64,000 nucleotides of DNA, taken from the NCBI GenBank assembly GCA_034780895.1, contig JAUZTB010003499.1, positions 1 to 64,000 on the forward strand, in the 5' to 3' direction. How positions within the stretch are numbered: the first letter of the stretch is position 1; every line of letters starts with the position of its first letter. This DNA comes from Rhynchobatus australiae. Taxonomy: Eukaryota. The notes beneath the pieces were generated by a model. It did no database searches and was not told the origin of the DNA. It saw only the letters and a list, made by a program, of their open reading frames with translations. The translations under genes were made by a program, and so were the position numbers. This document shows, piece by piece, positions 17,126 to 56,778 of this stretch.

Positions 17126-17659
17126 GTGCAATGAATTTTGAAGCTTTTTAAAAAGAGTTATGAAGAAAGACGTTTTAAAGAATTATTACTTTTAAACGAA
17201 ACAATTATTAATCAGTTTCAAAAACTCGTTTCTGATCCAGATAATTTAGTCGTTAATTTAAACAACTTTCGCACCGTTATTCACATTTATCACCATCTTG
17301 ATTTAGACGATCCTCTTTTTGATCAACTAATTGAAATTATTGCTAATAGTATTAAAACTAAAAAGCAACTTTATACGAGTAAATGGACACTGCTTTATCG
17401 TTATGAAAACAACTTAATTTTACCGACTATGCGTAGTGGCGCAAACTCTTTAGATGGCAACTTAGACGTTTTAGATTTAAGTAAGCACCAAAATAAAAAA
17501 ATTCGCGAAATTGCTAAGTCTTTATTTACGCTCATCGATTATTATTTAAACCAAGACAATTTTTATTTACTCTTTCCTTATGAGTTATTAATTTTTAAAC
17601 GTGATCAAGAACATCTAAACGTTTTGTTTGGGGAAGGCTATCTAAGTGCCTCAAGATAG
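17126..17659 (+). CDS. F1-like ATPase-associated protein (DUF2714/MSC_0623-like)
   Basis: GAGGAG then GTG; about 177 aa; second position in cluster; start could be 17138. Confidence 0.7.
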
Positions 17660-18476: not shown

Positions 18477-18484
18477 GATCGTTT

Positions 18485-19057: not shown

Positions 19058-19139
19058 ATTGCATTTTATTGTATACTAAGCCTGAAAGTGGCAGTTTTAC
19101 AAAAAGGCTAATCACTTAAATTAAGAAATGAGGAAATAA

Positions 19140-22100
19140 ATGGCTCCTAAAAAGTTTTGAATAAAGCTAAGCTCTTTAAGTCTTTTTGCTTCCTTATTAA
19201 CTTTAATGACGAGTATATCGGCGCCAGCGAAAAATTTGAAAACGGTGAAAAAAAGTAGTTTTTTTGCACAAAGCGCTACTGTTAGTTCTTTAAAAGTAAC
19301 TTTAGACAATCAAATTGAGAGCCACTTTAATAGTATTGCCAGCGCTTTACAAAACAAATTAAGCACTTTACAAAACCAAATTAAAGACTCAATCAATAGT
19401 GATAGTAGCGACTCAGGCGGTTTTAAAACTTTTCAAATTCGCAGTTTTGGCCTTTTAAGCGCCTTAGTCACTATTTTTGATAATGGCCTTAATAATAATT
19501 TACGCTCCGAACTAAAAAAAGAGTTAAGCAATTTTTTAAATCAATATTTAGTTGAAAACCAATTAGCAGCCCAGCTTTATCAGCTTCCTGGAGTGAATCT
19601 AAATAGAGCCTTAGTTAACACTTTAGAAGTAGATCAAATTAACACTTCTATTTCTACTTTTTTAAATAATTACCAAAAACAAATTAAAGCTTTAAGTGAA
19701 ATTGATTTTCAGAACTTAGAAAAAAGCGATAATCCACCAAGCACGATCAGTGAAACTACTGAAGCGCAAAAAGTTAAAAACTTTTTTATCAATACCCAAT
19801 TTAATAAAAGTTTTGAAAATTTATTAAAAGATAAAACGCTTAAAGACAATCGCAACAATTTAGTGCGTGCTTTTTATTTATCTTTAGCTTTGGATGATTC
19901 TTTTAGCAGCACTTCTTCGCAAACGCTTTACCATCAAGACTCAGCTTTAACGAATCACATTCATCAAATTAATGATGATCTTTTTACAGTTTTAGCTCAC
20001 GCTAATTTTGATTCTCAAACTGTTTCCACCAGTAACCAATCTTTTGCGCTTTCTACTAAAGATAGTATTAAAACTAAAACTAATTTACAAAATCGTAACC
20101 AATTCATTTGGGATCTAAGCGATTTTAATTCAGTTTTTGAAAATGCTTTTAATAAACTTGAAGAAACTTATAAAAAAGATAAAGAATTTATCGAGAAAAA
20201 AAATAGTGATAATAGTTTTCAAAACATCATTCTCACAACTACTGATAATGCTCCCACTAAAGAAGGAGATGTTACTTTATTTGATAAGTTTTTTTATGGC
20301 GCTGATGATTTCCAAATTGAAATTAAAGAAGGAACTAATGCTCCTAAAATTTATCAAAACCTTGAGCTTGTTCCTCTTAGTAAAATTTTAAGTTATGATC
20401 CAGGCCATGAGCAAAGTTCTGAGGCTACAATAAAGGCGCAAATTGTTTACAATAACGCTTTAGTTGAGCAAGATTTTCGTTTTTTAAACACGAGCCAAAA
20501 TCTTATTTTTGATAGTTTGGATAACTCTATAGACGAAATCAAAAAGCGCCTGAGCGCTTTACAAAGTACTATTACTAAAGAAAATGCGGCTTATCTTTAT
20601 CAAAGTGAGCAAACTTTAGCTTTTTTAAAAAGTGCTAATTTAAGTCAAATTTTAACTTCTGAATTTTTAGCAAAATTAGCAATTGCGCCTAATTCACAAC
20701 TAGAAACGATGGCTGAGCAATTTGGGCTCAAAGCCGTTTCTCTTTCTTTAGCTCCCGATACAAATCTGGAAACGCCTAATACACAAAAATCTTTAATTGA
20801 TGCCTTAATTGCTCAAGATCAAGTTACTATTGCCTTTAAAGTAAGCCCCCAAAGTAAGCCTCGAGAAGAGTACATACTTTCTAATTTCTTTTTAAAAGTT
20901 CCTCTTAGTTCGTTTTTTGCTTCAAATGTTGATACTCTCTTTAGTGAACTAATTAATCAAGCTGAAGAATTAGTGCCGCGTGTTAACACTCAATTTTTTC
21001 CTTTAGATTTAGAACCGCAAGCTTTAGTTAACCGTTTTCAAAATAGTAGCGAAAGTGATAAAGCGCGCTTTTTTAATGTACTAAATAATGATCCAAAATT
21101 ACAATACACTTTTAAAACTTTAACTTTAGATCCAGAAAATAACTCTAAAGCCATTTTAAGGACCGAAATAACGTTATTAAATCATCCTCGATTTCATAAA
21201 ACTTATGAAACGAGCATTTCTTTAAAGACAGCTATTGATAGAGCCCAAGAGTTACAATTTAGTTTAAAAGATCAATTTCTAGAATTTAGTTTTGACAATT
21301 TAGCGACTTTTTTTCGTCTTAATAATGATTCCTTTAAAGTAATTGAAGCTGGTGAAATTAATCCGCTTACTCCTTTTATGATTAAAAATAGTTCTGAACT
21401 AGAGCTTGAAAACCTTAATTATACTATTAAGAGTTTAGAACTTGATACTCAAAACTTAGGTCTAGCTCATTTAAAAGTAACTATTAGTAGTGAGCAACTA
21501 GTAGATCTTAGTCGTGATTTTGATACTAAGGTTGCCATTCCCCAAGAAATCATTAACGCTTATAACAATTTGAGTTTAGACTTAAGAGTTAGTAAAGCCA
21601 TTTTTACTAATAAAGAAGTGATCACGAAGGCCGAGTTTTTAAGCGAATATCAAAAAAGACAAAATCTTCAAAACGAACTAGAAAGACAAGAAGCTCTCAA
21701 TTCGCTTTTAAGCATTGTGCGCTCTTCTTTAGATCCTAATCAGTTTAACTATTTAATAAAACGCTTTAATCATTTAGACGCTAGCGAAAGAGCAATTAGC
21801 GTTGATTATCAAATTTCTCCTAAAGATCCACTTTTATTAGAGCCGCGTTTTAATTTAAGTAGAACTTTTGCTAATTTAAGAATTCAAGGCCTTTTAGGCG
21901 CTTCTACTTTAGAGTCTTTAGTAGCGCAAGCGCCCGCTTTAAAATATGATCTTATTAGTGCTACCAAAAAAAATTATGCCCGTGATCCTATTTTAGAATT
22001 AACGACTAATTCTTTAGAAGGCGGCAAGATAACTGAAAAAGGGCTTAGTCACTTTCTAATGTTACAAACTAATCCTTATCCTAGTCGCTTAAAATACCAA

Positions 22101-23066
22101 ATAGTAAAAGCTCATAGAGGTAATGCTAATACCGAAATAGCTCTCGAAGTAGAAATTAGTGCCTTAGAAGATGAAGCCATCAAACGCACTTATATTGTTG
22201 CCATTAAAAATTTAAAACCTTTTGCTCTTAATGAGGCCGATCTTGAAGATCAAAACGATTTTGCGGAGTTAATAGATCGCCAAAAAGAGTTGCTCCAAGA
22301 TCCTGAAAACGATTTTGTCAAAAAACTTTTAATTGGTGGTGGCGCTGCTATTTTAGCGCAAAATGGCATCTTAGACAATATTACGGCTAATGCCCTTAAG
22401 GAAACGAAAGCGGCAACTAATATTAATTCCATGCATGAATATGAAAATTTGGACCCTGCAGCAAAAGCTGAATTTGATAAAATCTTGAATGATAATGTTA
22501 ATGCTTCCTTAATCAAAACTTTAGCTCATGCTGATTATGATAGTCAAGAACTTAATGATAATGTCGATCAGTTTAAAAACGATTTTATGAAGATTTTAGA
22601 AGCCGAAGGCATTGATACCGAAGCTGATGCCATTCAAGAAATTATTAAGCAAATTGAAGCTTCACCGCAAGAAATTGCCAAAACGCTAACAGACAACGAT
22701 CTTAGTTTAGAAGACATTAAAAACTTAACTAATGATAATTTAGAACTTTTAAAAACGGCAGCACAGAGCATTAAAAACGGTGAGCTTAACTTTTCCGAAC
22801 TAGCTAAAATCGCTAAATTATTACGTAATTTTGACATTAAAAGTTTTCGTAAAGTGACTAATAGCGTTTCCCAGTCTTTAATTTATGGCGGCATTTCCTT
22901 ACTTTCTTTAATTAGTTTAACTTCTTTAATTATCTTACTCAAGCGTAAAGCTTTTAAAAGCGGACGCATGAAAATTTCTAAAAGAACTTTATTGTCTTTA
23001 GCGAAGATCATTTTAGGCACTTCTTTAGCTGGTATTGTCTTATTAATTTTTCAACTCTTACAATAA
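19140..23066 (+). CDS. Large surface subunit of F1-like cluster (MSC_0620 position), 1308 aa
   Basis: GAGGA RBS, N-terminal signal-like segment, two C-terminal TM helices, directly before the alpha subunit. Confidence 0.75.
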
Positions 23067-23134
23067 AAAAAGCACGAAATTAATTTTCTGTTTTAAAATA
23101 AGACGTATACTTTAAAAGATTATGGAGACAAAAA

Positions 23135-24727
23135 GTGAGTAATATCGTCGTTGAATCAGTTAAAAATTATATCGTTAAAGTGCGCGGTCAGTACAATTAT
23201 CGTTTTGGTCAAATTTTTAGTATTAATCATCAGTCCTTAGCGATTTTAATTTCTGCTGATCATGAACAAGGCTATTTAATGGTCGATAGTTTAGTGCCCA
23301 GCATTAAAAGTGGCGATCCCGTTTTTGAAAGTAGCGAAACTTTTGAAACGCTCACGCGTCCTTCTTATTTTGGTAATATTATTAACATTCACGGTAAAGT
23401 AATTCACGGGCTCAAAACTAAACCTTTTTTTGAACGCTTGGAAACTAAGCCTAATTTAGAAAAGCCTTATCCTTATCGCGCTGCTATTTTTAATATCGCC
23501 CCGACAATGAAACAAAGGCTCAATTTAAATGAGCCTTTACTAACTGGCATCTTTACTATCGATTTGTTAATTCCTTTAGGTAAAGGGCAAAGACAATTAA
23601 TTTTAGGTAATCCTAAAACAGGAAAAACTTCAATTGCCCTTTCCACTATTTTGAACCAAAAAGATAACGAACTTAAAATTATTTACACTTGCATTGGCAC
23701 TAAAGCTTCTGATCTTAAAATTATTTACAATGTTTTAGCCGAAAAAGGCTTAATGTTTAAAACAATCATTGTTTATGCTCCTTCTAATAATATTTTTCAG
23801 CAGTATTTAGCCCCGTATGTAGCGATGGCCCATGCTGAAAATCTGGCCGCTTTAGGTCATGAAGTGTTAATCGTTTTTGATGATTTAAGCAATCATGCTA
23901 ATACGATTCGCGAAGCGGCGCTTTTAATTAATAAACCGGTCGGTAAAGAAGCTTTTCCGGGCGATCTTTTTTTTCAGCACTCTTCACTTTTAGAAAGAGC
24001 GGGTAAATTTAAAAACGGCAGCTCAATTACGGCTTTACCGATTATTCGCATTTTAAATGATGATGTCACTTCGCTTTTAGCGACTAATGTGATTTCTATT
24101 ACTGATGGGCAAATCGTTTTAAATTCGGATATTCAAGCTTCAGGCATTTACCCTGCTATTGATGTTAACTTAAGCGTTAGCCGCACGGGCTCAAAAGTGC
24201 AAAACCAAATTTTAAGAAGAATTTCTTCAAAAATGTACAAAATTTATACTTTATACAAACTAAACAACCGTTTTGATAGTTCTAATTATGATTTTTCCGA
24301 TGCCATAAGTGACATCATTAAAAAGGGGCGTTCCCTTTTTAATGTCTTAAAGCAAGACGAGTTTTTAATTTATCCAGCTAGCTTTATTCTCCTTTTATCT
24401 AACATTATCGAATGGCGCATTTTAGAAAAAAAAGGGGCTGAAGACGTTAAAAAACTAATCGTTTTTCTTCATTTTGTCACGACTAAAACTTTTATAGGGC
24501 GCATTGTTTTAAAAACTTTGTATGAAGAAGAGTCTTTAACGATTGGCGCTATTTTTAAAAGCTACATTCAACAACTCATTTACCAATTTGAAAAACGTTA
24601 TCAAAAGCTCGATTTTGCTTATGATTATAATTACAATCTTTTACTTACCGAAAGTGAATGAACTAATTATGAAAATTTTGTTTTGCAACAAGAAAAGGCA
24701 GGATCACTAAAATGAGTGGGAAAATAA
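23135..24727 (+). CDS. F1-like ATPase alpha subunit (type 3)
   Basis: PLGKGQRQLILGNPKTGKT, GKEAFPGDLF, ISITDGQI, LSVSRTGS. Confidence 0.93.
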
Positions 24728-26400
24728 TCAGAGTCACAAGTGATGTTATCGATATTTCTTTTGCGCCCGCTGAAATGCCCGAAATTGGTAATATTTTAAA
24801 AGTTCAAGAAACGCACAACTTAATGCAAGTAGAGCAAATTTTAGATAAAACCACGGTCCGTGCCGTTTTAATTTTAATTAGCACTAAAAACGTTTATGTT
24901 AACCAAAAGGTTATTAATACAAAGCGCAACTTATCGGTACCGATTGGTAGTGACACTAACGGGCTCGTTTTTAATATTGCTGGCGAAGTATTAAATAAAG
25001 AAGAAATTCCGCTTTTTAAAAATATTCCGCTCGTTTTGGAGCAAAGTGCGGAAAACGATTTTACTATTAAATACGAAATCATCGAAACCGGAATTAAAAT
25101 TATTGACTTTTTCTTACCTATTTTAAAAGGTTCTAAAATTGGTATTTTTGGTGGCGCTGGCGTAGGTAAAACAGTCATTATTAAAGAGTTAATTTTTAAT
25201 ATTACTAAGCAGCTGCGCAATTTAAAAACTTATTATGTTGGTACAGGCGAGCGCTCGCGCGAAGGTAAGGAGCTTTATGATGAGCTTGTGGAATCACAAC
25301 TAATTGATAATGTGACGATGTTTATTTCGCAAATGAATGAGCCTTCAGGGGCGCGCCAAAAAATTGTTCCTTTAGCTTTAACAGCGGCTGAATACAGCCG
25401 CGATACAGAAAAGCGAGACGTGCTTTTTTTTATTGATAATATTTATCGTTATGTGCAAGCTGGGGCTGAGCTTGCCTTTTCTTTAGGGCGTAAGCCTTCT
25501 GAAGCTGGCTATCAAGCTTCTTTAGCTTCTGAAATTTCTAGTGTCCAAGAACGCCTGCGCAGCTCGCAAAAAGCGTCCATTACTTCTTTTCAAACGATTT
25601 TCTTACCGATGGATGATATTAATGATCCTGCCGCGGTAACCATTTTTTCTCATCTTGACTCTTCTTTAGTACTTTCGCGCTCCATTGCTGGTGAAGGCTA
25701 CTTTCCAGCTATTGATCCTTTAGCTTCTTCGACTTCTAATGCCCAACAAAAAATTATTGGTAAGCGTCATTTTGATTTAATTTTAAAAACCAAAAGCATT
25801 TTACGTAAATTTAAAGAGCTTGAAGATATGATCTTAATTTTAGGCATGGATGAGCTTGATCCTGAAAATCAGTTAATCGTTAAAAAAGCGGTGCAACTAA
25901 AAGCTTACTTTACGCAAAATTTTCATATGGCCGAAGCTTTTACTAAACGCCAAGGCGTTTTTGTTAGTAAGGAAAAGAACTTATTAACGATTGAAAAAAT
26001 TATTAATGGTGAATTTTTAGATCTTTATGAAGAAGAGTTTTTTTTCATTAGCGATTATCGCGAATTGGAAGCTAAACAGCGCGCTCTTTTAACTTTGGAA
26101 GTGCAAAAGCAAAAAACTTTAGAAACTGAGCTCAAAAAGCTAGAAACGCAAAAAAAACGTCAAGGCTTTTGAAAAAGAGCGCTCAATACAGCCGAAATTA
26201 ATAGTTTTGACCCTTTTAGTGAAGATTCTTTAACGCCTACTAATAAGTGGCTTAATGATAAAAGTTGAGTAAAGCCAGAAACTAAAGAGCGAACTTCACT
26301 AAGTTCAAAAAAAGACAAAAAAGAAAATAAAGCGCTTAGCAAAAACTGAAAAAAAATCTTTAAAAAAGAAAGTAATAATGATGAAGCTTCCCAATCATAA
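24712..26400 (+). CDS. F1-like ATPase beta subunit (type 3) with C-terminal extension
   Basis: FGGAGVGKT, GERSREG, QMNEPSGAR, DNIYRYVQAG, LGMDELD; open to TAA at 26400. Confidence 0.93.
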
Positions 26401-33628: not shown

Positions 33629-34304
33629 TTCATTTATTTAAAGTCTTTTTCTTTTAATAAAAAGTTATTATTTTTAACTAATAAGGTAGCAAAAATAATT
33701 TTTTGAATTAATAATGATAAATTAGTAAAAAAATTTTAATTAAATGATCTTTATAGTTCTCTTATGAATAATTTCATATTCATTAATTATTTTTTTAATT
33801 ACGCAAAGGCTTTTAAAACTAATTTATTGAATCAATTTAGGACAAATTGCCTTTTTGAAAAGCTTTTATTTTCTTTTAAAATTATTTAAGAAAACAGAAA
33901 TAGCTGTTTCATAATAGATTTCATAATTTTTTTAGAACTCTTAATTAAACATTAAAAAAAAATTAAAAATTTAAATAAGGACAAGCAAAAGCTCTTCTAA
34001 ACACTGCGGATTGGAACAAAATAATTTTTGCACAGAAATAAAACGAAGCTTGGGCGTTTTTTATCAAGATAAATCTATACAATGTACAAATTTTTCATAG
34101 TGAAAAAATTTCAAGACAATAAATATAAATTTAATATGTATTTGTATAAATAAATAGTCAATTATTTACCTTTATGAGCTCAACTCAAAATACAAACTAT
34201 GAAAAAAATATGAAAAAGAATTTAAAATTAAAAAATAAAGTAAAAAGTCCTAAATTTTTCCCCATTTTCAAATTTTTGCTGCGTCATCCTTTTTAATTAG
34301 AATT

Positions 34305-34799
34305 ATGAAAAAGCACTTCTCCAAAATAATTAGTATCTTCTTAGTATTGACTTTGCTTACTATGTTCATTTTTCATTTCAGTTACAATTTGCATTTGCAA
34401 AAAAATACTTACCAAAAACAATTAAAAAAAATTAAAGTTTATCTAAATGGTGCCATTGAAAAGCCGGGCATTAATTATTTTGAAAAGGGATCAACTTTAG
34501 GACAAGCCTTAGCACTTAGCACCCTTCAAGTTGGCGCTGATTTAAATAAATTAGATCTTGAAAGAGTTTTAAATGACAATGAATATCTTTATATTCCTAA
34601 AAAAGGTCAAAGGTTTAGGACGGTGCAGAAATTAAAAGAAATAGATTTAGTAAAATTAAAAATACCCACCAAGCTTAGAAAGGAGATTTTCAAATATTTA
34701 AAAAAGGTAGAATTACCAACTTGGGATGGTTTGGCACAAATCAAAGGCCTAGGCGCAAAAACAATAGCAAAATTGCAAAGTATTTTGATACTTCAATAA
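34305..34799 (+). CDS. comEA: ComEA-like DNA-binding protein
   Basis: N-terminal TM, SLBB-like VYLNGAIEKPG...ADL..L, HhH LAQIKGLGAKTIAKL. Confidence 0.85.
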   Translation: MKKHFSKIISIFLVLTLLTMFIFHFSYNLHLQKNTYQKQLKKIKVYLNGAIEKPGINYFEKGSTLGQALALSTLQVGADLNKLDLERVLNDNEYLYIPKKGQRFRTVQKLKEIDLVKLKIPTKLRKEIFKYLKKVELPTWDGLAQIKGLGAKTIAKLQSILILQ

Positions 34800-34807
34800 G
34801 ACAATTT

Positions 34808-36067
34808 ATGACGCTTTTAACGCTTTTACTTTTAGTCATGGCGATTATTGCTAATCATTTTGCTTTTGCTTTTTTCATTTTAATAAGTCATTTAATTTGT
34901 CTTTGAAGTTTGCCTAAAAAGCTTTTATTTTTATTATCAATTTATAGTTTAGCATTTCTTATATTAGTATTATTTTGAGTTCGTAAATTTTCCTTTTACA
35001 CAGAAATAGAAGAAGATCTGTGAGTTTCTAAACAGAGAAGTAATTATTCGATCGTACAAAGCAGAAGCGCTTTTTATTTATGAAGAAAAAACGATTGAAT
35101 GCAAAAAGATAGCGTTTATCAAATTAGAGCACAAATCAAAAAACTACCTGAGCTTAATAGAAATGATTTTTTATTTGCGCAAAACGTTTTTTATGAAATT
35201 AAAACTTGAAAAATTTTAGCAACTTACAAAGCTTTTAGTTTTCAGCATCTGCTGCAAAATTATTTAAGTGATGCTAAGCCTTTTTATGAGCGTTATATGA
35301 ATTTATTTTTACTCAATTGATACTCTTCAAAGACTCAAGATTTAGTGCAAAATTTACAAAATTATGGCATTTTGCACTTAGTGGTAATTTCTGGGTTACA
35401 CTTAAATTTTTTACGTTCTTTTTTTGAAAAAATTTTTAAGTTTTTAAAACTAAATAAAGATCAAAGCCAACTCTTAATTATTACAATTTTTATTAGTCTA
35501 TTTTTCTTTTTAGGTTTTAAAGTGTCTTTATTTCGCATCGTTTCGGTAGCTATTTTGCTTTTTATTTATCAAAAAATTTTTAAAAAGAAACTTGCTTCGG
35601 AAATAGTGCTTTTAATTAGTGCTGCTTGTTTATTAATTTTTAACGCTCATATTTTCAAAAATTGAGGTTTTGTCTTTTCTTATGTAATCACTTTAATTTT
35701 AGTTTTATTAAGCAAAATCAAATTTAAAAACCGTTTGCAAAAAGCATTTGCCTTTCAAGGCGTTGCTTATTTAAGTGCTTTACCATTAGTTCTTTTTTAT
35801 CAAAAAAAATTTATTATTTGAGCTTTTTTCTTACAAATCTTTTTTCTTTTTTGAATATTATTGAGTTTCTTTTTAGCTTTTTTTGGCTTCTTTTTAAAAG
35901 ATTTTCTCAATTTTTACTTTCAATTTTTAGACTCCCTTTTTTACAATTTAAAGTTTATGCAAACTTCTTTAATGATATGAAGTTGAAAATTTTGAGAGCT
36001 TTTCAGCTGAGAAACAATTTTAGTTTTCTTAATTTTTATCAAAAAACATAAACAAAAATGGCCTTAA
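34808..36067 (+). CDS. comEC: ComEC-like competence membrane protein (no metallo-beta-lactamase domain)
   Basis: GILHLVVISGLH, SLFR, GFVFSY; one frame across many TGA; start uncertain (TTG 34721 also in frame). Confidence 0.85.
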
Positions 36068-43902: not shown

Positions 43903-43994
43903 GCACTTTTGATAAGAGCTCAGTTTTGTAGCTAGGAGCTTTAAATTTCTTTATTTTGACTTTCTAGGGAAACGCTTTCAGGCGTAGCAGTTTC

Positions 43995-44405
43995 TTATGC
44001 TTCTGAGATTTTATCTACTTTAAATTTTTTGAAAGCAAAAAAGGCTAAACCGTGAAAAATAAAAGAAATAGCAATGCCTAACAATAAAAATACAAAAATA
44101 TTTTTGTGTTGTTGTTTTATTTGTTGTTTTAATGATTCAGGAAAATTTGAAAACTTAACGGCAACAACGATGCCCAGAACAAAAGGAATCACCCATGCAG
44201 GAATGCCTAAGATTATGGTTACAGTTAAAAAAGTCACAGCGCCTTCAAAATTACTAAATGCTTCATTAACGTTTTTGGCATCTGCTCTAGCAATTATTTG
44301 GGCAACTACTATAACAGTTAATGTAAATAAGAAAAACAAAACACCAAAAATTCAGTTTACAAAAGTTAAATTTTTAAGTTTATTCAATCTTTGTTGAATC
44401 TCCAT
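43995..44405 (-). CDS. Small 3-TM membrane protein, paralogue 1
   Basis: MEIQQRLNKL...FSNFE...GIPAWVIPFVL...KFSNFPESLK; AGAAGG RBS. Confidence 0.8.
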
Positions 44406-45612
44406 TTATCACCTTCTAGATTTATTTTTAATTAAATTAATTACATTATATTTTATCAATATAACTTTTAGTTATTTTCATTTAATTTATTTAATAAATT
44501 AAAAGCTTTTCATTCTAAAACTTTTCTTAGTTTAAAAACAAAAAGCCTATGATTTTTAAGTCTTATATTTTTACTTTACATTTGCAAATGCTAAGCCAAA
44601 ACAAATAGCAAAACTTCTTAGTGTAAGTAATATTTAAGAAACGATGGCTAAAATTAAATTTACTTTTATAGAAGTTGATTATTAATTTAGTGATAATCAA
44701 AAGTATTATTAAAAACATTAACACTAAAGTTTGAAATTAAAAATTTTTGCGATAACTAAACATTTATTAAAGAATCTTTAAAATTGTCATAAAAAGCTCA
44801 TTAAAGTAGAATTTTAAAAACACAAAGTCATAAAATTAATTACCATCTCTTAAAATTATGATAGTTAGACTTTAACATTTGGCAAAATCGCTTAGTAAAA
44901 ACTACTTTTAGTGCTAAATTAGCTACCTTTTTCTGCCCAAAAGCGAGTCAATAATCATAAATTAGAAGACGCTGATATTTTTCGTTCTAAGCTAGCGAAC
45001 AGCTAAAATTTTAGCTAAAAAAATTAATGCTCCTGTTTATACTACCGCTTTAGTCATCAAGAAATTAGCTTAAACTCTAGCTTTTGTTTTTAAAATAAAT
45101 ACCTTTACATTATTTTAGATACAAGCGAAAAATTAGCCATGAATAGCGCTTGATTTACTGTGCGAGTTGAGCTTAAAAAATATTGTTTTCATGAATTTTT
45201 TTTGTGTATGTACTTTTGTTAATAAGATATTTTTAATGCTGCTCTGTTTTCTCTTAAAAATTATATTTAAAAGTTTTTTGATAATCTGCCTTGGCATAAT
45301 TTTAAAACTAAAGTAAAATATGATATATTTTTTACTTATGAATTTTGAAAAAACATTAAAAATTCATGTATTTTATGAGTCATTTTTTGAATGGTAAATC
45401 TAGTTGCATCTTTTATAGATAAAATAAATTCAAACTAAAAAGTTTAAATTAAGTTGCAATTTACTATTTTATCTAAAGAGCTAGAATCATTAATTGCCTC
45501 TAGCTTTTAATTTTTTTAAAAACGAAAGCTACCTAAAAGAATTTACCAAAAAGTTTTTAGTGCTTAGTGAAAATTTACTTTTTACTTTAGAAAATAAAAT
45601 TTGCAAAAATTA

Positions 45613-45650
45613 AAACTCAAAAACACAAATAAATTGCTGTTTTTGAGTTT
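45613..45650 (-). terminator. Terminator after membrane paralogue 2
   Basis: aaactcaaaaaca...tgtttttgagttt. Confidence 0.6.
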
Positions 45651-45682
45651 GATAGAAACTAAGGTCTTAGTAGCTATGAGCT

Positions 45683-46138
45683 TTAAATTTCTTTATTTTG
45701 ACTTTCTAAGGAAACGCTTTCAGGGTTAGCATTTTGGGCAAATTCAGGCATTTTCTCAACTTTAAGCTTTTTGAGCGCAAAATAGGCTATACCTTCAAAA
45801 ATAAAAGGAAGGACAAAAATTGCTAACAATAAGAAAACAAAAATACTTCCGTTTTGTTCTTTGAGCGATTCAGGAAATTTTGAATATTTAACAACTGTAA
45901 TAATGGCAAGAACAAAAGGAATCACCGATACAGGAATGCCTATAATCACAGCTACGACAAAAAAAGTCGTTGCGTTTTCAAAATTACTAAATGCTTGATC
46001 AGTGTTTGTGGCATCTGTTCTTGCGAATATCTGAGCAACTATTACTGAAGAAATTATGAATAATATAAATATAATTGTAAAAATTCAAGTTACCAAAGTT
46101 AATTTTATGAGTTTATTCAATCTTTCTTGAATCTCCAT
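45683..46138 (-). CDS. Small 3-TM membrane protein, paralogue 2
   Basis: MEIQERLNKL...FSNFE...GIPVSVIPFVL...KYSKFPESLK; same RBS context as paralogue 1. Confidence 0.8.
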
Positions 46139-46285: not shown

Positions 46286-47614
46286 ATGTTAGATTTTCTT
46301 GGTTCGCGTTTGCAAAAAAGCTTAGCAAAAATGAATAAAAAAGCGCATCTTAGTGAAAGTGATATTTGAGAAGCAATGCGTGAAATTAAATTTGCTCTTT
46401 TAGAAGCTGATGTTAATTTAGTCGTAGTTAAAAGTTTTATTAAAAACGTTAAAACGAAAGTTTTAAATTCTCAAATTTTCGGACAACTAAACGCTTATCA
46501 AAGCGTTGTTAAAATCGTTAAAGAAGAGTTAATTCAAGTTTTAGGTTCAAAAACACAAAGTCTTAAAATTAATCACCACCCTTATAAAATTATGATGGTT
46601 GGGCTTCAAGGATCAGGAAAAACTACTTCTAGTGCCAAGCTGGCCACTTTTTTACGCAAAAAAAAGCTCGTTCATAATCCGCTTTTAGTAGCCGCTGATA
46701 TTTATCGCCCTGCAGCTATTGAACAGTTAAAAATTTTAGGTAAAGAAATTGGTGTCAAGGTTTTTGCTTTAGCACAAGCTAGTGCCCAAGCAATTAGTGC
46801 CCAAGCTTTAGATTTTGCTTTTCAAAATAAGCACGATTGTATCATTTTAGATACTGCCGGAAGGCTCGCTATTGATACTAATTTAATGACCGAACTAATT
46901 GAGCTTAAAAAAATCTTTCGTCCTGATGAAATTATTTTTGTGCTCGATGCTCTGAGCGGCCAAGACATTGTTAATGTAGCTCAAACTTTTCATCAAAAAC
47001 TCAACTTGAGCGCCTCATTAATTACTAAACTTGATTCCGATGCGCGCGCTGGGGCCGCTTTATCGTTGCGCCAATTACTAAAACTACCTATTAAGTACAT
47101 TGGTACTGGAGAAAAAATTTCCCAGCTTGATCTTTTTCATCCCCAAAGAATGGCCGAGCGCATTTTAGGCATGGGCGATGTTTTAAGTTTAATTGAAAAA
47201 GCAGAAGAAGTCGTAGACGAAAAAAGAAGTCGCAAGATGATGAGTCGTTTAATGGCGGGTCAATTTAGTCTTGATGATCTTTTGGAAAATTTAAAACAAA
47301 TTAAAAAAATGGGCAAAATGAAAGCTTTGGTGAAACTAATTCCTGGTATTGCTAATAAAATTGATGATTCGCAACTCGATAGCGCTGAAGAAAAACTAAA
47401 ACTTTTTGAAGTCTTGATTAACTCCATGACTTTTGAAGAACGAAAAAATCCTAAATTATTAAAAAACGCTTCGCGTAAAGAAAGAATAATTAAAGGCTCA
47501 GGCCGCAAAGTTCAAGAATACAATCGTTTAGTTAATGAATTTGAAAAACTTTCGCAACAAATGAAACGCGTTTCATCGAGTTTTAAAAGCGGTAAAAACC
47601 CTTTTAATCTTTAG
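46286..47614 (+). CDS. ffh: Signal recognition particle protein
   Basis: ALLEADV, GLQGSGKTT, DIYRPAA, DTAGR, TKLDSD, RILGMGDV. Confidence 0.97.
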
Positions 47615-47731
47615 CGCAACTTTTCCTAAAAAATTCCCATAAAGCCCAAAAAAAGCTACTTTTTCCTATAAAAGTCTTTTTTTTGTGCTTCTTTAAAGTT
47701 CTCATGCTTAGATTGAAGCAGGAGGTCAATT

Positions 47732-48028
47732 ATGAATTTACTCATAACATTAAACACAAAAGTGATCGATTTAGCACCTATTGCTAATAAAACTAGCCAA
47801 ATTATTAATACCGTTTTAGGCGCTATTAGTGGTTTGATTGCCCTAGCCTTGATTATTACGGCGATTTTTTATTTTGTAAAACTTTCTTCACAAGGTGAAA
47901 ATTTTGAACAACGTAAAAAATATTTAAGCGCCCTTAAATGAGTCGCTTTAGCTTTTGTAGGAATTTTAATTATTTGGGGCATAAGTGCTAGCGCCGTAGC
48001 AATTATGCAACAAAGTTTAACGACTTAG
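47732..48028 (+). CDS. Pilin-like (VirB2-like) conjugal transfer protein (Mbov_0395-like)
   Basis: GGAGG RBS; 98 aa with two hydrophobic helices separated by a charged loop; first gene before VirB4. Confidence 0.7.
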
Positions 48029-48032
48029 CAAT

Positions 48033-49100
48033 ATGAAATTTATTAACTGAATTAAATACGCTTTTTTTTATGTCGGCTGAAACGTCTTTATTAAAGGACC
48101 TTTGTATGTTCTGCACGAGTTACACAATCTCATCGAGTTTGTTTCTTTAGATTTTGTTAATTATCTTTTTTTCGAAGGCAAAAAGAGTGATGGCTTTAGT
48201 AATACTCCTAAACTTTTTGGCTTTTTTGCCTTATTGGCTTTAGTCGTCTTTTTCTTTATTTTAATTAGCATTTATTTTACTATTATTAATCAAAACCGTT
48301 TTGAAAGTGGCCTAAAAAAACTCAAATACGCCCTCAAGCATAGCGCTATTTCGGTCTTAGCGATTATTTTTTTACCTTTAAGTTTTATCGTTTTATTTTA
48401 CTTTTTTTCACAAGCTATACTTTTAAGTTCTGCTGCTTTTAGCAAAGAGTACAATTTCACTTTTGCGGAACAGCTTTACATGAATATTCATATCGGTACT
48501 AATCAATTTGATGATATTGCGTATAATTTTATTAAAGGTAGACACGAAAGCAACTTCGCCGCTCCTAGTTATGACACTTGATTTAATTCGCATTATAATA
48601 GTTTTAATTTTTTTGTTTTAGTCATTAGTGTTTTAGTTTTAATCGTTTTAATGAGCAAAATTTTTATCCTTATTTTTAAAACGCAAATTGAACTTACCTT
48701 TTTATTTTTAATTTCACCTATTATTATCGCTTGAATTAGTGATTATCGCAACTACAAAATTAGCAAATTAAAAAACGATATTATTAAAAAAATGGTAATT
48801 ATTTTTTCCTTAATTCTCTTTTTAAAATTAAGCACTTACTTAAACACTTTTATAATTGATTTTTACGATTATAAGTTTTTTTCAAACAATCGGCCTGCTT
48901 TTATTGTGATTCATGCTTTTATTCTCGTTTCGACAGTGTTTGCCATTAGTCAAATTCCTAAAATTTTTGGCCAGTATTTTAAAACGCGCGAATTTATCAA
49001 AGATCCAAAAACTACTGTACGCAATTATTATCAAAATAATTACGCTTCTTATTTTAAAAAAGATATGCACTATCATTGAGCGCAAAAAACGAGGCATTAA
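48033..49100 (+). CDS. Polytopic membrane protein, VirB6/TrbL-like (Mbov_0396-like)
   Basis: 355 aa, several TMs, IELTFLFLISPIIIA motif typical of ICE VirB6-like proteins. Confidence 0.7.
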
Positions 49101-51632
49101 ATGATCGTTCCTAAAAGTTTAAAAACTTCCAGTTTATACATTTGAAAAAAATACACTTTGTACGATTTGCTTTACTTATTAGTAATTCTCATTTTAGCTT
49201 TTTTAATTACTCATTTTTTAAATATTAACAAAATTGTCAAACTAGTGCTTAGCTTTTTACTTTTTATGAGCTTTGCCCCTTTAGTTTTGGAATCAAAAAA
49301 ACACCATTGTAAATATTATGTACTCTTTTGATTCATTGTTTCCTATTGACTGACGCAACGAAAATATTGGGCACATAGTAAAAAAAATAATACTAATCTT
49401 TTAAATCCTTATTTAATTACTAAGGAAAAACTTTTAGCAGCGAAGAGTAAAAACGGAACTTTAGCTTATTTAAAAATTGTTAAGATTTACGGTTTTGATC
49501 TTAGTTCCTTAGAAGAAAATTTACAAGAACAAAAAATTAATAAACTAGAAGCTTTCTTGCAAACAATTGATATGCCTTTTTCCATTATTAAATTAAAAGA
49601 AGAACTTTCTTATCAAGACAATCTTTTAAAAACGCAAAATCAGTACTTAGTTGATAATTTAACTTATCGCCAAATCGTTCAAAGTTATCAAGCAACTCTA
49701 AACGATAAAAAAGCTAAGCATACTAAAAAAATTAGCTGTTATTTAGCTTTTCAAAACTTTAGTGCTCAAGATTTACAAAATAGTTTAGAAACTTTAATAA
49801 ACCAAGGGCAAAAAATTAATTTAAAAATAGAAAAAATTTCTTTAGCTAAAGAAAGCGAAATTATTGCTAAAGTTAATTATTTTAAAAACGAAGCGAGCTT
49901 ATTAAGCGAAAACTATTCTTTAAAAGAAAACAATCGTCTTCTAAAGCTTTATTTGCAAACTAAAAAAACTTTTTATAAAGCCCAATATTTGGAAACTGAT
50001 GAGCAATTAATTAATTTACAAACGCTTCATGAATTTCCTTTTGAAGTACAAAAAGGTTGGGCCAAATTGCTTTTTGATTTAGAAAGTGATCAAATTTGAC
50101 ACTTTAGTGACTTAAGCACTGAAGATGCTTATAAAAACATTGATAAAGCCATTTCAACTCAAGAGTTAAACCAGCAAACGATCAAAAATAAAGTAGCTAA
50201 GGAAAATGAAAACATTAAATTAGAAACTTTAAAACTTTTAGCTACCAAAGTCGCTTTTGGTAATTATAAAATTAAGCAAGCTGCAATTATGATTATTAAT
50301 GGCGCCACGCACTTAAAGACTTTAAAAAAAATTGTTGCTGAAAACAAAAAGAAATTGTTACCAACGGGAATAGTTTTAAACAATCAAGCGTTTAAACAAC
50401 AACTAATTCATCGCCAGCTTTTTTTAAGCTCGCAATCGTATCAAAGATTGCCTTTATCGATTCCTATAGACACACTCGCTGGCGCCTGACCTTTTTATAA
50501 TTCACAATTTAATGACGGTAATTTGTGTTATTTAGGTACTAACCATTTAAACGAAGCAATCATTTTTGATTTATTTAAAAAAGATCAACACCGCAAAAAT
50601 TCTAATGCTTTAATTTTAGGAACTTCAGGTTCAGGAAAAACGACTTTTGCCAAAAAACTACTATTGCACGAAATTATGAAAAAACGTAAAATCATTATTT
50701 TAGATCCTGAAAATGAATACACCCAGTTCATTAAAAAACTCGGCGGTAAAACTTTAAATTTAAAAATTAGTGCTTTAAGCCAAATTAATCCGCTCAAAAT
50801 TTTAAATTTTAATAAAGCTAATAAAGAAGCTTTAATCAAGGCTCATCTTAATTGATTGCAAAGTTGATTAGCAACTTTGTATCAAAATTTTGAGTACCAA
50901 TTAATTATTGAACTAATCTTAATTTTAAAAGATCTTTATGAGGCCATTGATTATGAAAAAACTTTTAGTTGGCCCAAAATGCAAGATTTACTAAAAGCTG
51001 CGCTGCCTTTAAAAAAACAATATAACTTATTTTTTCGCCAGCTGGAAGCTGATTTTAGCGCAACTAAAAAAGAACCCAAATTAATTGAAAATTTTGATTT
51101 TAAAGCGCCAATTGTTTCTATTAACTTAAAAACAATTATGGAAAGTAGCGAAGAAAACGTCTTAATTGCTTACATTCAAATGATTTTGTATTTTTTACAA
51201 GAGTTAATTAATGAGAATCTGGTGGCCCAAAAAAGACTCATTATCTTTATGGACGAAGCTCACATATTTTTAAACTCTGAATATCCTAAAGCTTTAATGT
51301 TTTTGTTTCAGTGAATGAAAAGAATTCGTAAATACAATGGCTCTTTAATTTTAGCAACGCAAAATCCTAGCGATTTTCGTTTACAAGGCGCTAGTGAACG
51401 TTTAGCTTCGGCTTTAGTTAATAACGTTCAGTACAACTTCTTTTTAAATTTAAAAGATGCTGATATCGAAGCGGTTAATAAGCTTTATAAAGCTTCGGGT
51501 GGACTAACGCGAAAAGAACAGTTTTTTTTAAGTAATGCCATTCGTGGCGAAATTCTTTTCGGGATTAAAAATAATGAAAGGAAATTTTTAACTTTGCACT
51601 ACAATGAAATCGAAAAACAGTTTTGTCTTTAA
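49101..51632 (+). CDS. VirB4/TraE-like ATPase with N-terminal TM (PrgI/VirB3-like) region (Mbov_0397-like)
   Basis: Single 843-aa frame; NSNALILGTSGSGKT, ILDPENEY, FMDEAH, KRIRKYNG, ATQNPSDF. Confidence 0.9.
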
Positions 51633-54600
51633 AGTTCTAATCTTGATAATTAGCATTTTCAGTTTTTTAACAATTAGTGCTAAAACTTTAGTTAATACTG
51701 AAGCTAATGTAGTTTTAAAAACAAATAGCCAAAATGAAAAAGAAAACACCCGTTTTTTTATTAAAGAAGATGGTATTAAAGATTATGAAATCGACAATTC
51801 CGAAGCCGTTGTGACTGAGAGCCAAAGATACCAAATTATTAATGATACGCAAAGCACTAATCAGTATTTAAAAATTTACAATTATCGCATCGGCTTAGAC
51901 TCAGAAGATAATAATTACTTTTATTATAAAATTGAGCTTAATAATGATTTTTATGTTAAGCCTTATGATTGAACACAAAAAAGTACTAATACTAAAGCTG
52001 GCGCTTTAGTCCATCATAAACTTAATAGCGCCATTTTAAAAAAAGTCATTAAAAAACAAAAAGACTATTTAAAAAATTTAAAATTTCGTGAAAGTACAAC
52101 TAAGGAAATTGTTGAAAATACAGTGCTAGTAAAAATTAATAAAGATACAAGGGCCAATTTTGAAGTCACCCTTGAGCACATTTTAAAAACTAAACTGAGT
52201 GGCTATCAAGCTTATTTAGACACACTTAGAAACAAAGTTATCGAGCTAACTTCTACTTGGCAAAATTTTAATTCACAAAGCCATCATCCGGAAATTGAAA
52301 TTGTTAATATTAAAAGAGAAATTGCTAATTTAATAGCAGCCATTACCGAGCATCATACGATTATCTGAGGCGACTTTGCAAAAGGTAATTTTACTTTTAA
52401 GGCTAATCTTTACAATCATATCGGCGACAATAAAGACACACATCGCTATTATTGATTTAAAGCTTCGGGCTGATATCATAGTAAGAATAATTACTTTAAA
52501 AACTTAAGTATTAAAAAGCGTATTAAATACATTTATCGCAAAAATCGCATTATTAGAGACAAATATCATTCTGAAGTTCCTCAAAAAGTAAGGGATTATT
52601 TCAAAGTCGAGCTTTTTCCCAAAATTTATTTTGCTACTAATAATACAGATAAAGAAACGCTTTACGTTAATGATCGCGAAATTAGCGTTTTAAATGACAT
52701 TTTTATTTACGATCTCGAAGAAAACGCTAATGCTGAAAAGGAAAAAGTAATTACCATTTATAATCGTCATAAAGAACTAATTTACCAAAAAAAATTTTCT
52801 AAAATTACTAATTCAGGACTTTTAAAGTATCGCCTTTGAGGCTGAAACCCAGACATTAATTTAGAACAGCGCAATCTTATTACGCCTTTTTTGGGCGAAC
52901 TCAAAAAAGAGCCTAATCCCCTTTATGATCCTTTAGTTAATCCCCTTAGTGGCTTAAAAAGTAAAATTATGTGAGCTAACTTTGAAGGCCTTAAGCATAA
53001 GCCCGATTTTATTAAATACAATGGTAATAATGTTTTAGAAGCTGGTGCCTTTTTGGAAGTCATTAAAACACATAAAGGAGTAGTTTTTCAGATTTCACAA
53101 AACACTAATTATTTTAGTATCAAGAAATTAGATTTAGCGACTAAAAGCTGACAATTAATTGAAGATCTTTTTAGTGCTGCTGATTTAAGCAAGCTTAAAG
53201 AAGACAATAACTTACACTTTTCTTATGAAGGCGTTTATCTTTTCACAATTAGCTCTGGAGTTAATCAAATCCAGAGATATTATTTATTTCAAATTGGCTC
53301 TGAAGCTTTTGATCTTGATAATGAGCTCAAACTAGTGCCTTGAAAAATTTCCCCTTATGGGCTTATTTTGCAAGAATTAGATAAAAAGCTAAAACTGGAA
53401 AAAATTGATTCAAACTTTAATTACTCTCAACTGATCGATTTTTGGCTCAACACCCTTTTAGCTTACATTAATAATAAAGAAAAGCATGAAAACGATTTAT
53501 TTTGGGAAATGACTTACAGTCATGAAGAGTTAGAAAACGCTTTACAACAAGGACGTTTAGAAAGAGTTTTAATGCCGAGTAATTATGGCGAAGAAGCTTG
53601 GGATTTTATTAAAAACGATGAGTTCAAAACTTTTTTAAACGTTGATCAAGATTATGATCAACAACACCTTTTCTTTTCTTATGGTGATTATAAACCTAAC
53701 ATTGAATACCATGTTCCTAAAATTAGCTGAAACGATATTAGAGACCATATCGCTACTGCTAAACATAATTGACCTAAAGGCCATAATCGCGACTTTAGCA
53801 AATTTTTGGACGATCAGAGCCAACCTTTATTTTATTTATATGCAACTAGATTGAGTGAAGTCGACTTTGGCTTAAACGTCATTTTAAAAACTTTAGATTT
53901 CAAATTACACCCTTTTTATTATTATCGGCGTTTGTATATTGATCCTGATTATGCTCCTGTTTCCCTAGAAGCACTAAAAGATTTTCAAGTTTTAGAAACA
54001 CAAGAAATTAATTTACAAGGTGCAACTTCGGAACACGAAATTCGCGAATTGCTCTTTGCTAAAATTGAAGCGCAACTGCTTGCTAATGAAATTCCTTTTA
54101 AATTAATTGATGTTAATTTTAGTCATGAAGATCTTAAAAAATGAACCCAAGTAGCTACTAATCAAGACATAATAAACAATTATGAGTACCATTTTCTTTT
54201 ACAAAACGATAATCAAAACGTTTTAGTTCCTTTTCGTTTAATAAATCATTTAGATAAAGACGTTTTTGTTGATAATATTGATCTTAGTCAAATTAGTAAA
54301 CTAGATTTTACTATTAGTGCTAATTCAGAGCAAGCCATAATTCAAGAAATTAAAGCGCAACTGAGCGCTTATTTAAAAGAGCACAATTTAGTTTATGGCT
54401 ATGATTTAGTAATTAAAGATTTTGATCAAATTTCGCTACAAAGTCAAAAAGACGGTAACTTTTCAGTACAGTTCACTTTACAAAACTTAAGTAATAATTT
54501 GGATCATCGTTTAGAAGTAGGCTTTAATAATAAGTTGCAAAACGAAAATTATCTTTTTGATTTTGCAGCCTTAAAAATTAGTGATCTTTATTTTGAAATT

Positions 54601-55032
54601 AATAATCATCAAGATTTAATTAGTGCCATTATTGAAAAAGTTAGTGAAACTTTAGCCAAAAAACAGCTTTATTATTTGCAAGACTATGAAATTTTGGATC
54701 TTTTTGACGTTGATAAAATTAATCAGCTTTTAAAAATGAGTACTACTAAATACAACCATCAAGTTTTCACTTTAGTAGCGCTTAATAATTCTGGCTTTAA
54801 CAATTTAAAAATTAATGTTTATAATAAAAATAAATCCGAAGTAAAAGCCTTAGTTCAAGAAATCGATAACCCTACGCGTGATTTCATTGAAGAAAAATTT
54901 ATTGAAACTAAAAAAGAGGCGAAAAAGTACAATTTTTTAGCTTATACAATTCCTTTAGTCATCTTAGCAACTTTTCTTTTGGCGCTTTTTATTAAATATT
55001 TATACCATCGTTTTAATAAAAAAGTGAGCTAA
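51604..55032 (+). CDS. Large surface protein of the ICE-like cluster (Mbov_0399-like), 1142 aa
   Basis: Single frame across TGA; N-terminal signal-like segment, C-terminal TM plus basic tail. Confidence 0.72.
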
Positions 55033-55851
55033 TTATTTTTGACAAACAGGACAATAATAAGTGCCGCGACCGTGCAGTTTGATTTTTTTGATGAGTTTAA
55101 AACAGCGCTCACATTGCTGATTTTGCTTACCGTGAATTTTTAAAAATTTTTGGTATTGGCCTTGTTTTTGATTAAGTGAAGCGTAACTATCGATTGTGCT
55201 GCCGCCTAATAAAGTAGAAGCGTCCATGATTTTGCTGGCGCTTTTTAATATTTTATTTAGCTTTGCTTTGCTAATTTGATTAGCTTGACGATCGGGTCTA
55301 ATTTTTGCCATTCACAAAGTTTCATTAACGTAAATATTGCCTAAGCCTAAAACCTTGCTCTGATCTAATAAAAAATTTTTAATGGCACGGCTACTTTTTT
55401 GCGCTTGCTTGTAAAAATCATTAAGATCAATTTGGGCCGGCTCTTGAGCTAATGATTTTAAAGGCTTTAGTTCTAAATAATTATCGCTTGAGCGTAAATA
55501 AAAAGTGCCAAATTGACGATAGTCTTGATAGTGCAGTTCAGAATTATCAGCAAAATAAAAAATAAGATGGGTGTGGGGCTCTAAAAGATCACGTCTTTTT
55601 TGATAAAAGGAATATTTTCCAGTCATTCTTAAATGCGAGAGCATCATTGTTTGCTCTAAATCAAAAACGATAAATTTACCTATATTAAATACCTTTCTAA
55701 CTTTTTGCTTTACAAGCGTTTTACTGAAAGTAATAGGATCAATTTCTTTAATTAATTTAGGCAGTCAAATTTCAACTTTAACAATCGTTTTATTTTTAAT
55801 TTTTTCATTAATCGCTTGCGAGGCGACACGCACTTCGGGAAGTTCAGGCAT
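55033..55851 (-). CDS. mutM: Formamidopyrimidine-DNA glycosylase
   Basis: MPELPEV, HLRMTG, GLGNIY, CERC...RGTYYCPVCQ. Confidence 0.96.
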
Positions 55852-55917
55852 ATTTTTAGTATATAAAGAATCACTTATTTTTCTTCAAGAAAGCGTTAAT
55901 AAATTAAAATTAAAGTT

Positions 55918-56778
55918 ATGGAAATTGCCATTATTGCAGAATACAATCCTTTTCATTACGGTCATCAATACCAGCTGCATACGATTAAAAAAGTTTTCCC
56001 TGAAGCTATTATTACTGTTTTTTTAGCTCAGGATTATTCCCAGCGCGGTGAATTTATTATTCAGTCTTATCAAGATCGCCAAGCTTGCGCTTTAAAAAAT
56101 GGTGCTGATTTTGTTTTGCCTTTAGCTAATCGTTTGGTTTTGCAAGGGGCACCTCACTTTGCTGAAAAAATTTTGCAATTTATTAAAGACAATAGCCAAA
56201 TTAAAACGCTAGTTTTTGGTTCTGAACTTAATGATTTAAAAAAACTACACGAATTTTTAAAAATTTTAGAAATTGAGAAAAAAAAAGAACTTTCCGGGCC
56301 AGCTAAAGCTAATAGCAATTCACTAAATTTTTTTCACTGAACTAAAGGACAAATTAGCGCTAATGATCTTTTGGCAATTCATTATTTACAAGCGAATCAA
56401 AAATTAGGTAACTACTTTCGCCTTGTTAGTTTAAAAAGAATTACTAACAAAAAAGAAAATAATTATTTTGTACGGGCTTCTTTAGTTCGTCAAGCGCTTT
56501 TAAAAAAACAAAATTACGGACTTTTGCCTTGTAAGTTAAAAGCTTTAAAAAGAAAAATCGACTATTTACACTTTCAAAGTTTAGTCATTAACTATCAGCC
56601 ACAATTAATTAATCAACACCAAAATTTTGAAAAAGGAATGGCAGAACTTTTTAAAAAACACATTTTTGCCAAAGATCTTGAAGCTTTTTTATCAAAAGTA
56701 ATAACCAAAAAATATCCGCGTGCTAAAATTTTGCGAGCCATTAATAGTTTAGTAGAAGGTTTTATTTGCGCACGATAA
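55918..56778 (+). CDS. tmcAL: HIGH-family nucleotidyltransferase (TmcAL-like)
   Basis: IIAEYNPFHYGH, QRGE, GADFVL, FGSE, ANDLLAIHY, ASLVR. Confidence 0.85.

Follow-up and report, generated by a model that had tools for sequence, protein, structure and literature searches.

Mycoplasma integrative and conjugative elements (ICEs), for example ICEA of M. agalactiae and ICEH of M. hyopneumoniae, carry genes for a pilin, a VirB6-like protein, a VirB4 ATPase and the surface protein Mbov_0399 within the Mbov_0395–0401 set. We found the same order in a four-gene cluster between ffh and mutM in the DNA analysed here, a window of 64,000 bases (bases 1–64000 of the 212,321-base contig C3499) belonging to part of a mycoplasma genome inside a 2.23-Gb eukaryote assembly (G000). 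The conjugation module of the mycoplasma ICE is clearly the ancestor of this cluster, which, however, differs from such elements in lacking a coupling protein, Mbov_0398, Mbov_0400, CDS14 and a transposase and in being present as a single copy at a fixed site among housekeeping genes. CDS5 (the VirD4/TraG coupling protein), CDS14 and CDS22 (the DDE transposase, at the element end) are essential for transfer of ICEA (passages of PMC6030558). In M. agalactiae, vestigial ICEA extends over a larger region, MAG3860–4060, and is not this four-gene unit (passages of PMC12892991). On balance, we lean towards the interpretation that the cluster has been domesticated as a module for DNA import within a competence-like regulon and that it parallels Helicobacter ComB independently.

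In M. hyopneumoniae, M. flocculare, M. hyorhinis and M. pulmonis, the TrsE-like locus of the chromosome is the same four-gene cluster and, like that of the window, lies outside any ICE (hereafter, element-free); dprA leads it there, whereas the cluster of the window is led by the pilin gene and occupies another site. The TrsE copies of these mycoplasmas are mentioned in passages of PMC3610235 that attach neither a function nor a link with competence to them. ComB of H. pylori is also a chromosomal type IV secretion system (T4SS) without VirD4, and it imports DNA and hands it to ComEC (passages of PMC12857230). ComB is a diderm system with VirB7–VirB10 and VirB11, whereas the cluster of the window consists of four genes of monoderm ICE origin in a cell with neither outer membrane nor wall, and its role in import is putative. 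The chromosomal T4SSs of Patescibacteria resemble it in their monoderm-type VirB4 and VirB2-like pilins and mostly have no relaxase (passages of PMC12102498), but those systems are reported to be essential for epibiotic growth independently of ComEC (passages of PMC12857230), have more components and lack Mbov_0399. In the window, the model for CedD of the archaeal Ced system scored 36 bits, its cut-off being 600. Ced combines a pilin, a VirB6-like channel and a VirB4-like ATPase for contact-dependent import. This import role is mentioned in passages of PMC12102498, and archaea are described as lacking ComEC in passages of PMC6299819. Within the literature searched (without supplements and subscription papers), no paper tied the cluster to dprA or competence, and the word 'dprA' is absent from the accessible main text of PMC12205969.

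Composition and site of the cluster

Open reading frames (ORFs) were called under genetic code 4. Four ORFs on the + strand, spaced by 4, 0 and -29 nt, fill the ffh–mutM interval without a frameshift, and the TAA of the last (55030–55032) abuts the mutM stop codon (55033–55035), as an earlier note on this DNA had described. Genomes are labelled G### and fetched loci L### below, with L221 being the locus of G238.

46286..47614, + strand: ffh, left flank (PF00448); same flank in G238/L221
47732..48028, + strand: Mbov_0395-family VirB2-like pilin, 98 aa, two transmembrane (TM) helices by hydropathy (NF045849, PF18895)
48033..49100, + strand: Mbov_0396-family polytopic membrane protein, VirB6/TrwI fold, 355 aa, about six TM helices (NF045848/NF045889)
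49101..51632, + strand: VirB4 ATPase (Mbov_0397/TrsE-like), 843 aa, two N-terminal TM helices (NF045975)
51604..55032, + strand: Mbov_0399-like surface protein, 1142 aa, with a signal/anchor at the N-terminus and a TM helix at the C-terminus (NF045892, BLASTP)
55033..55980, - strand: mutM, convergent right flank (PF01149); same flank, plus the next gene, in G238/L221

The identities that the note had assigned to the four products were borne out by family models, a structure model and conserved motifs. The pilin scored 71 bits with NF045849 (cut-off of 40) and 34.8 bits with PF18895, and its orthologue at the corresponding site in G238 shares 45% identity with it. The 355-aa protein matched the Mbov_0396 and MMCAP2_0566 models with 110.8 and 120 bits (cut-offs of 70 and 90). 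Its AlphaFold model (pLDDT of 70, from 12 sequences) was closest to TrwI/VirB6 (7o3v; Z of 10.5, root-mean-square deviation of 4.8, 244 residues aligned) and next to DotA (Z of 9.1), with a Foldseek probability of 1.00 and an E value of 0.07. A Z of 10.5 is middling for a helical protein, yet the top two matches of this predicted structure are T4SS channels. VirB4 scored 613.5 bits with NF045975 (cut-off of 590) and contains Walker A (GTSGSGKT, residues 507–514) and Walker B (DEAH, 718–721) motifs whose residues are invariant across 55 homologues; it is the sole VirB4 found in G000, and its two N-terminal TM helices probably represent a VirB3/PrgI-like fusion. The score of the 1142-aa protein with NF045892 (71.6 bits) is below the cut-off of 170, its orthology being assigned by position and by BLASTP (1e-30 with G238, 6e-40 with G139), and no relative with a solved structure was found for it by sequence. 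The locus thus contains the mating-pore set of the mycoplasma ICE (Mbov_0395, 0396 and 0397 over cut-off, 0399 below it but orthologous) and the core of a T4SS, consisting of VirB4 with intact motifs, a VirB6-fold channel and a VirB2-like pilin.

Hidden Markov models (HMMs) that we built from fetched loci were run on the window and the other 148 kb of the contig. No credible coupling protein, Mbov_0401 transposase, or MobV or MobP relaxase was detected in the contig, consistent with the note, and neither were Mbov_0398, Mbov_0400, CDS14, DprA, RecA or an alternative sigma factor. The only ssb of the contig is situated 57 kb beyond the window, in what we take to be an rpsF-ssb-rpsR neighbourhood. 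Neither a bacterial recA nor a bacterial rpoB was found in G000; the assembly therefore contains only part of the mycoplasma genome, and gene absence holds for contig C3499. A search with PF02534 revealed no coupling protein in G000, where the bacterial genome is incomplete, and that with PF06782 was uninformative given that its controls were silent. The 20 direct families and 25 inverted pairs listed included no repeat pair bounding the cluster, in line with the note's statement on terminal repeats. In a public sequencing run, which is perhaps the source sample and not independent evidence, the stretch was covered at a flat depth of ~110 and a single contig spanned both cluster ends. The contigs of this run, which drop rare variants, contained no end-to-end joint of the cluster of the kind that an excised circle would give; two joints were rejected, with sides of 20–21 nt at a depth of 6.

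Insertion of the cluster was neither random nor strain-specific, with G238 having it at the same site and dprA-led copies sharing sites among themselves. The order at L221 is ffh, pilin, VirB6, a VirB4 broken into two parts, a surface-protein orthologue of 1240 aa, a small extra gene, mutM and the neighbour of mutM. The Ffh proteins of G238 and the window are 62% identical, and synonymous divergence (dS) between them is saturated. The G+C content at third codon positions (GC3) of the four genes, 0.23–0.27, is inside the range of their neighbours. The cluster is real, long resident and, by defining features, not a mycoplasma ICE.

Relatives of the cluster and selection on its genes

A search of 328 Mycoplasmatales genomes with NF045975 gave matches in 139, and 130 VirB4 loci (stretches of up to 20 kb) were examined out of the 150 matches listed, with 58 more beyond that list. 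Locus ORFs were grouped by clustering; an overlap filter removed the pilin ORFs at L108 and L109, so that their absence is not implied. The best VirB4 matches, 34–41% identical, carried the species names M. agassizii, M. pulmonis (TrsE-like) and M. testudineum. A tree of 145 VirB4 proteins grouped the window's copy with those of M. pulmonis, M. agassizii, M. testudineum and G238 with a support of 1.0, and this clade consists of element-free copies only, with 0 ICE copies. Other scans were less productive: an insensitive word-indexed protein search returned 7 distant VirB4 matches and 0 for the 1142-aa protein, a single-protein scan of genome contigs gave no matches, and the matches of an alignment-based scan were mostly in Patescibacteria.

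At 19 of the 130 loci, the four genes form an operon, dprA-pilin-virB6-virB4-0399, between housekeeping genes. None of these 19 stretches of 20 kb contains a coupling protein, compared with 70 of the 111 other loci, and mobility genes are likewise absent from all 19. In an annotated M. hyopneumoniae record, dprA and the pilin gene overlap by one base; this species also has a separate ICEH with a coupling protein, 0398 and 0400. The VirB4 proteins of dprA-led loci sit at three positions in the tree, of which one adjoins ICEH-like copies and another lies within CDS14-type ICEs, and recruitment or replacement therefore occurred more than once. Comparison of a ComEA+ComEC tree with the VirB4 tree for 23 taxa gave a Mantel rho of 0.58 (p of 0.001), with 7 of 11 supported splits in agreement. 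In many mycoplasma chromosomes, these four conjugative-element genes are thus fixed and conserved, with linkage to genes for the processing of incoming DNA.

The ratio of nonsynonymous to synonymous divergence (dN/dS) was calculated by the Nei-Gojobori method. For eight close pairs of related copies, it was 0.03–0.06 for VirB4, 0.06–0.13 for the pilin (five pairs), 0.13–0.25 for VirB6 and 0.15–0.23 for 0399, and dS of the cluster genes matched that of flanking housekeeping genes, a divergence of the vertical type. More distant pairs gave higher values (0.10–0.30 for VirB4, up to 0.64 for 0399). The note had argued from intact reading frames against decay. Intact frames by themselves would fit a live ICE module as well as a domesticated one. 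Domestication without decay is supported by the fixed position, host-like GC3, the element-free clade and purifying selection in related copies. Intact VirB4 copies of 841 and 853 aa are present in other M. agassizii and M. pulmonis records, and a clearly split gene was seen in 3 of 21 element-free loci.

Other clusters were also observed. Clusters led by c69 (G001, G208, G287, G322, G327) have upstream DNA that is not comEA-like and were not counted as the same system. A virB4-first element-free cluster with a different large protein occurs at L185, L197 and L198 (G085, G293, G315), in genomes without a coupling protein; its dN/dS is 0.13–0.44 and its upstream DNA is not comEA-like. A second fixed cluster is found in Spiroplasma (L187–L190, L192, L200, L201, L204, L205; the L021/L022 group) in the order rny-ffh-small gene-virB4-pilin-virB6-coupling protein-pgsA, mostly after recA. 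It has no relaxase, keeps the coupling protein, also follows ffh and shows a dN/dS of 0.12–0.36. In a Spiroplasma clade (L139, L141, L142, L146), virB4-pilin-virB6 is fixed upstream of mreB, with a coupling protein upstream. M. genitalium MG390, considered as a VirB4, was rejected, being listed as a SunT-like ABC protein.

Competence genes and upstream DNA

The genes comEA and comEC lie 13.4 kb upstream of the cluster, in agreement with the note, in the order comEA-comEC-holA, and no ComG pilus genes were found among the ORFs of the window.

34175..34304, + strand: comEA upstream region; 33-nt stretch that also occurs upstream of ruvA on this contig
34305..34799, + strand: comEA-like DNA receptor, 164 aa, putative partner (NF045978, 118.7 bits, cut-off of 98)
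34721..36067, + strand: comEC-like DNA channel, 448 aa, Competence domain only, putative partner (NF045979, 152.7 bits; PF03772, 65.3 bits)
47615..47731, + strand: upstream region with phased TTTTCC(T)AAA tracts, a candidate alternative-sigma promoter

The proximity of comEA/comEC, on which the note had relied, is uninformative, with comEC being present in 256 of 329 Mycoplasmatales genomes. Among carriers of the element-free cluster, comEA was found in 30 of 30 (broken in 2). Both comEC and dprA were present in 24 of 24 element-free carriers, 19 of which have dprA by definition and which include nonindependent kin, as well as in 56 of 115 other genomes with VirB4 and 98 of 189 without it. A coupling protein was detected in 9 of 9 controls but not in 22 of the 28 carriers searched, the other 6 having one elsewhere in the genome. 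The ICE transposase was absent from 17 of 25 carriers, fragmentary in 3 and whole in 5. No ComGA-type (PF00437) ATPase was found in 28 carriers beyond P-loop scraps of 60–75 residues in 3. The combination characteristic of ComB-type systems, ComEC without VirD4, is thus present within the contig and in most carriers, with ComEA and ComEC in the window and DprA not found in the partial genome.

A pooled 44-nt matrix derived from 24 comEA upstream regions was rejected as weak (6 of 20 held-out dprA-led regions at p≤0.05). Given this weakness and an apparently species-specific motif, we used within-genome pairs, in which the upstream DNA of comEA was compared with that of the first gene in the cluster, with 200 random upstream regions as background. 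Of 29 regions, 11, 7 and 8 reached p≤0.05 in three versions of the test, the wider window having been picked after some comEA anchors proved to be downstream of the true start. At this threshold, the wider window gave 7 of 20 dprA-led, 1 of 2 pilin-led, 0 of 3 VirB4-first and 0 of 4 c69-led clusters, and the narrower window 5, 1, 0 and 1, respectively. With one genome per lineage, the match was obtained in 8 of 14 lineages (wider window). Co-resident ICE copies in the same genomes had upstream scores of 10–16, within background. The regions upstream of comEA and the cluster share 42 nearly identical nt in G244, ~80 nt in G250 and 34 nt (p of 0.01) in G238, whose cluster is pilin-led at the window's site. 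A shared candidate box is clear in G238, G244, G250, G199 and G301 and weak in the window's copy. By eye, G139, G238 and G250 show a TT(T/G)(T/G)C(A/G)-like element, 19 nt and ATT(A/T/C)A, close to the sigma-20 box of M. genitalium; in that species, the box precedes comEC, recA and ruvA, and recA and ruvAB are sigma-20 targets (passages of PMC4446450). A sigma-like gene (TIGR02937, 31.9 bits, below cut-off) is located a few genes downstream in 7 loci.

Neither a sigma-70 consensus nor a terminator was found in 47615..47731. The comEA and ruvA upstream regions of the contig are reciprocal best matches (rank 1 of 84), and the ruvA upstream region ranks 2–3 of 84 for that of the window's pilin gene. 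Such ranks only suggest a comEA/ruvA/cluster regulon for the window's copy. A dinB-like polymerase gene and ruvAB, with the comEA upstream motif at ruvA, are on the contig at L006:7199-8443 and L007:1112-2672. In G244, two paralogous coiled-coil-like genes without an NCBIfam match (L170:5601-6967) have the same upstream box as dprA and comEA.

Possible function of the cluster

ICEA transfer depends on CDS5 (passages of PMC6030558), and a pore that has neither coupling protein nor relaxase is unable to export DNA in the known way. Given that related copies are under selection, form an operon with dprA and share upstream DNA with comEA, the entry side of import provides the best fit, and by analogy the cluster most likely works like ComB. 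In the proposed scheme, whose steps from induction to RecA loading are modelled on competence in Firmicutes and on ComB of H. pylori, a mycoplasma ICE's mating-pore core would have lost its coupling protein, transposase and relaxase, become fixed in the chromosome and come to serve DNA entry. An alternative sigma factor would turn on the cluster together with comEA/comEC, dprA and ruvAB; VirB4 and the VirB6-fold protein would assemble or move a short VirB2-like pilus; and the large surface protein might capture DNA or a neighbouring cell. ComEA would then bind DNA, ComEC pass one strand and DprA load RecA, and the cluster would replace the ComG pilus for DNA that is either free or delivered by cell contact. 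A contact-dependent route is possible given the DNase-resistant transfer reported for M. pulmonis (cited in passages of PMC4251992).

Several observations weigh against an import role. ComB of H. pylori requires VirB11 (PMC13395361), and neither VirB7–VirB10 nor VirB11 is among the four ffh–mutM genes, with the 28 carriers also containing no PF00437 ATPase other than the scraps mentioned. Of 178 genomes with both comEC and dprA, 98 have no VirB4 match, and the com genes are therefore not dependent on the cluster; genome counts moreover include kin and are not phylogenetically independent. The dprA gene is also found beside mobility genes at L219 (G159; relaxase-like gene and coupling protein) and L149 (G103; transposase 14 kb away), so that its linkage possibly comes from a dprA-carrying ICE. 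These loci, and a second dprA elsewhere in G103, suggest that dprA is ICE cargo; a dprA-carrying ICE may be the ancestor and the linkage inherited. The 3 VirB4-first clusters, the 4 c69-led clusters and the majority of the hyopneumoniae group showed no upstream match. VirB4 is split in the two nearest copies (G139, G238), as is VirB6 in G291. For the window itself, dprA is neither beside the cluster nor found in the incomplete genome in G000; dS is saturated, so that the selection which the note had proposed to measure was measured in related copies only; the pooled matrix gave p of 0.74 upstream of the pilin gene and 0.34 upstream of comEA; and the comEA-pilin upstream match is weak (rank 46 or 4 of 84 depending on window size). 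The case for a competence role is weaker for this copy than for its relatives. The note's proposal of an outer part of a wall-less competence system is accordingly unproven, although the dprA operon, the upstream DNA shared with comEA and the lack of a coupling protein and ComG ATPase in most carriers all speak for it.

It is unlikely that the cluster was instead domesticated for a job other than DNA transfer, as a platform for a pilus or adhesin or as a secretion system for host contact that works without a coupling protein, analogous to Bartonella Trw and Bordetella Ptl, with dprA adjacency inherited from the ancestral element or insertion site. Purifying selection is silent on function, VirD4-less T4SSs with such roles are known (passages of PMC12857230), the 1142-aa surface protein is the fastest-evolving part, and com genes persist in the 98 genomes without VirB4. 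Such a role, however, leaves unexplained both the comEA-shared upstream DNA in 8 of 14 lineages, with co-resident ICE copies at background, and the one-base dprA-pilin overlap. Marginally less probable still is that the cluster is a resident helper whose mating pore serves chromosomal exchange between cells, in the donor or in both partners, with the coupling protein supplied by a visiting ICE or replaced by another ATPase. The species in which DNase-resistant transfer was reported, M. pulmonis, has a closely related copy, a plasmid can complement cds5 in trans (passages of PMC6030558), 6 of 28 carriers have a coupling protein elsewhere, and the only partial agreement of the com and VirB4 trees suggests exchange with ICEs. 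However, 22 of 28 carriers have no coupling protein, channel mutants were not complemented by co-resident ICEs (passages of PMC6030558), and DprA and ComEA act on incoming DNA. A vestigial ICE, immobilised and awaiting decay without host function, is improbable and for the relatives largely refuted: all four families are ICE families, VirB4 occurs in only 139 of 328 genomes and three copies have split genes, but the same four genes were kept while every mobility gene was lost, the site is shared across a 62% Ffh identity with saturated dS, dN/dS in close pairs is 0.03–0.25, GC3 is that of the neighbours, and intact 841- and 853-aa copies exist.

Under the preferred import role, the outer machinery that has been missing would have a candidate in this cluster, which also offers an operon, a putative promoter and suitable species for testing. 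We hold more tentatively, at a little under an even chance, the broader proposition that mycoplasmas have native, ICE-independent, regulated DNA uptake in which a four-gene relic replaces ComG and was recruited repeatedly into a comEA/comEC/dprA/ruvAB regulon, the window being one case. If so, these bacteria without a wall may possess a route of DNA uptake of their own that has yet to be described, and the cluster would represent a second independent conversion of a conjugative T4SS to an import device, the smallest known and in wall-less cells. Annotation pipelines mislabel this core chromosomal locus as 'ICE element' genes.

Elsewhere in the window, two paralogous small membrane proteins are encoded at 43995–44405 and 45683–46138. 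A 1.77-kb segment between 31-nt repeat copies in this region (43936–46138) had a depth of 93, compared with 110–113 on either side, and is possibly variable. A seven-gene cluster at 15532–26400, with atpA- and atpD-like genes at its end, is presumably a mycoplasma F1-like ATPase cluster. Beyond the window, L009–L012 contain what we take to be myo-inositol and arginine deiminase gene clusters from the N-termini of their products. An intact 593-aa ORF (L009:2017-3795, + strand; ~136–138 kb of the contig) has an N-terminus that we presume to resemble the ADP-ribosylating CARDS toxin of M. pneumoniae.

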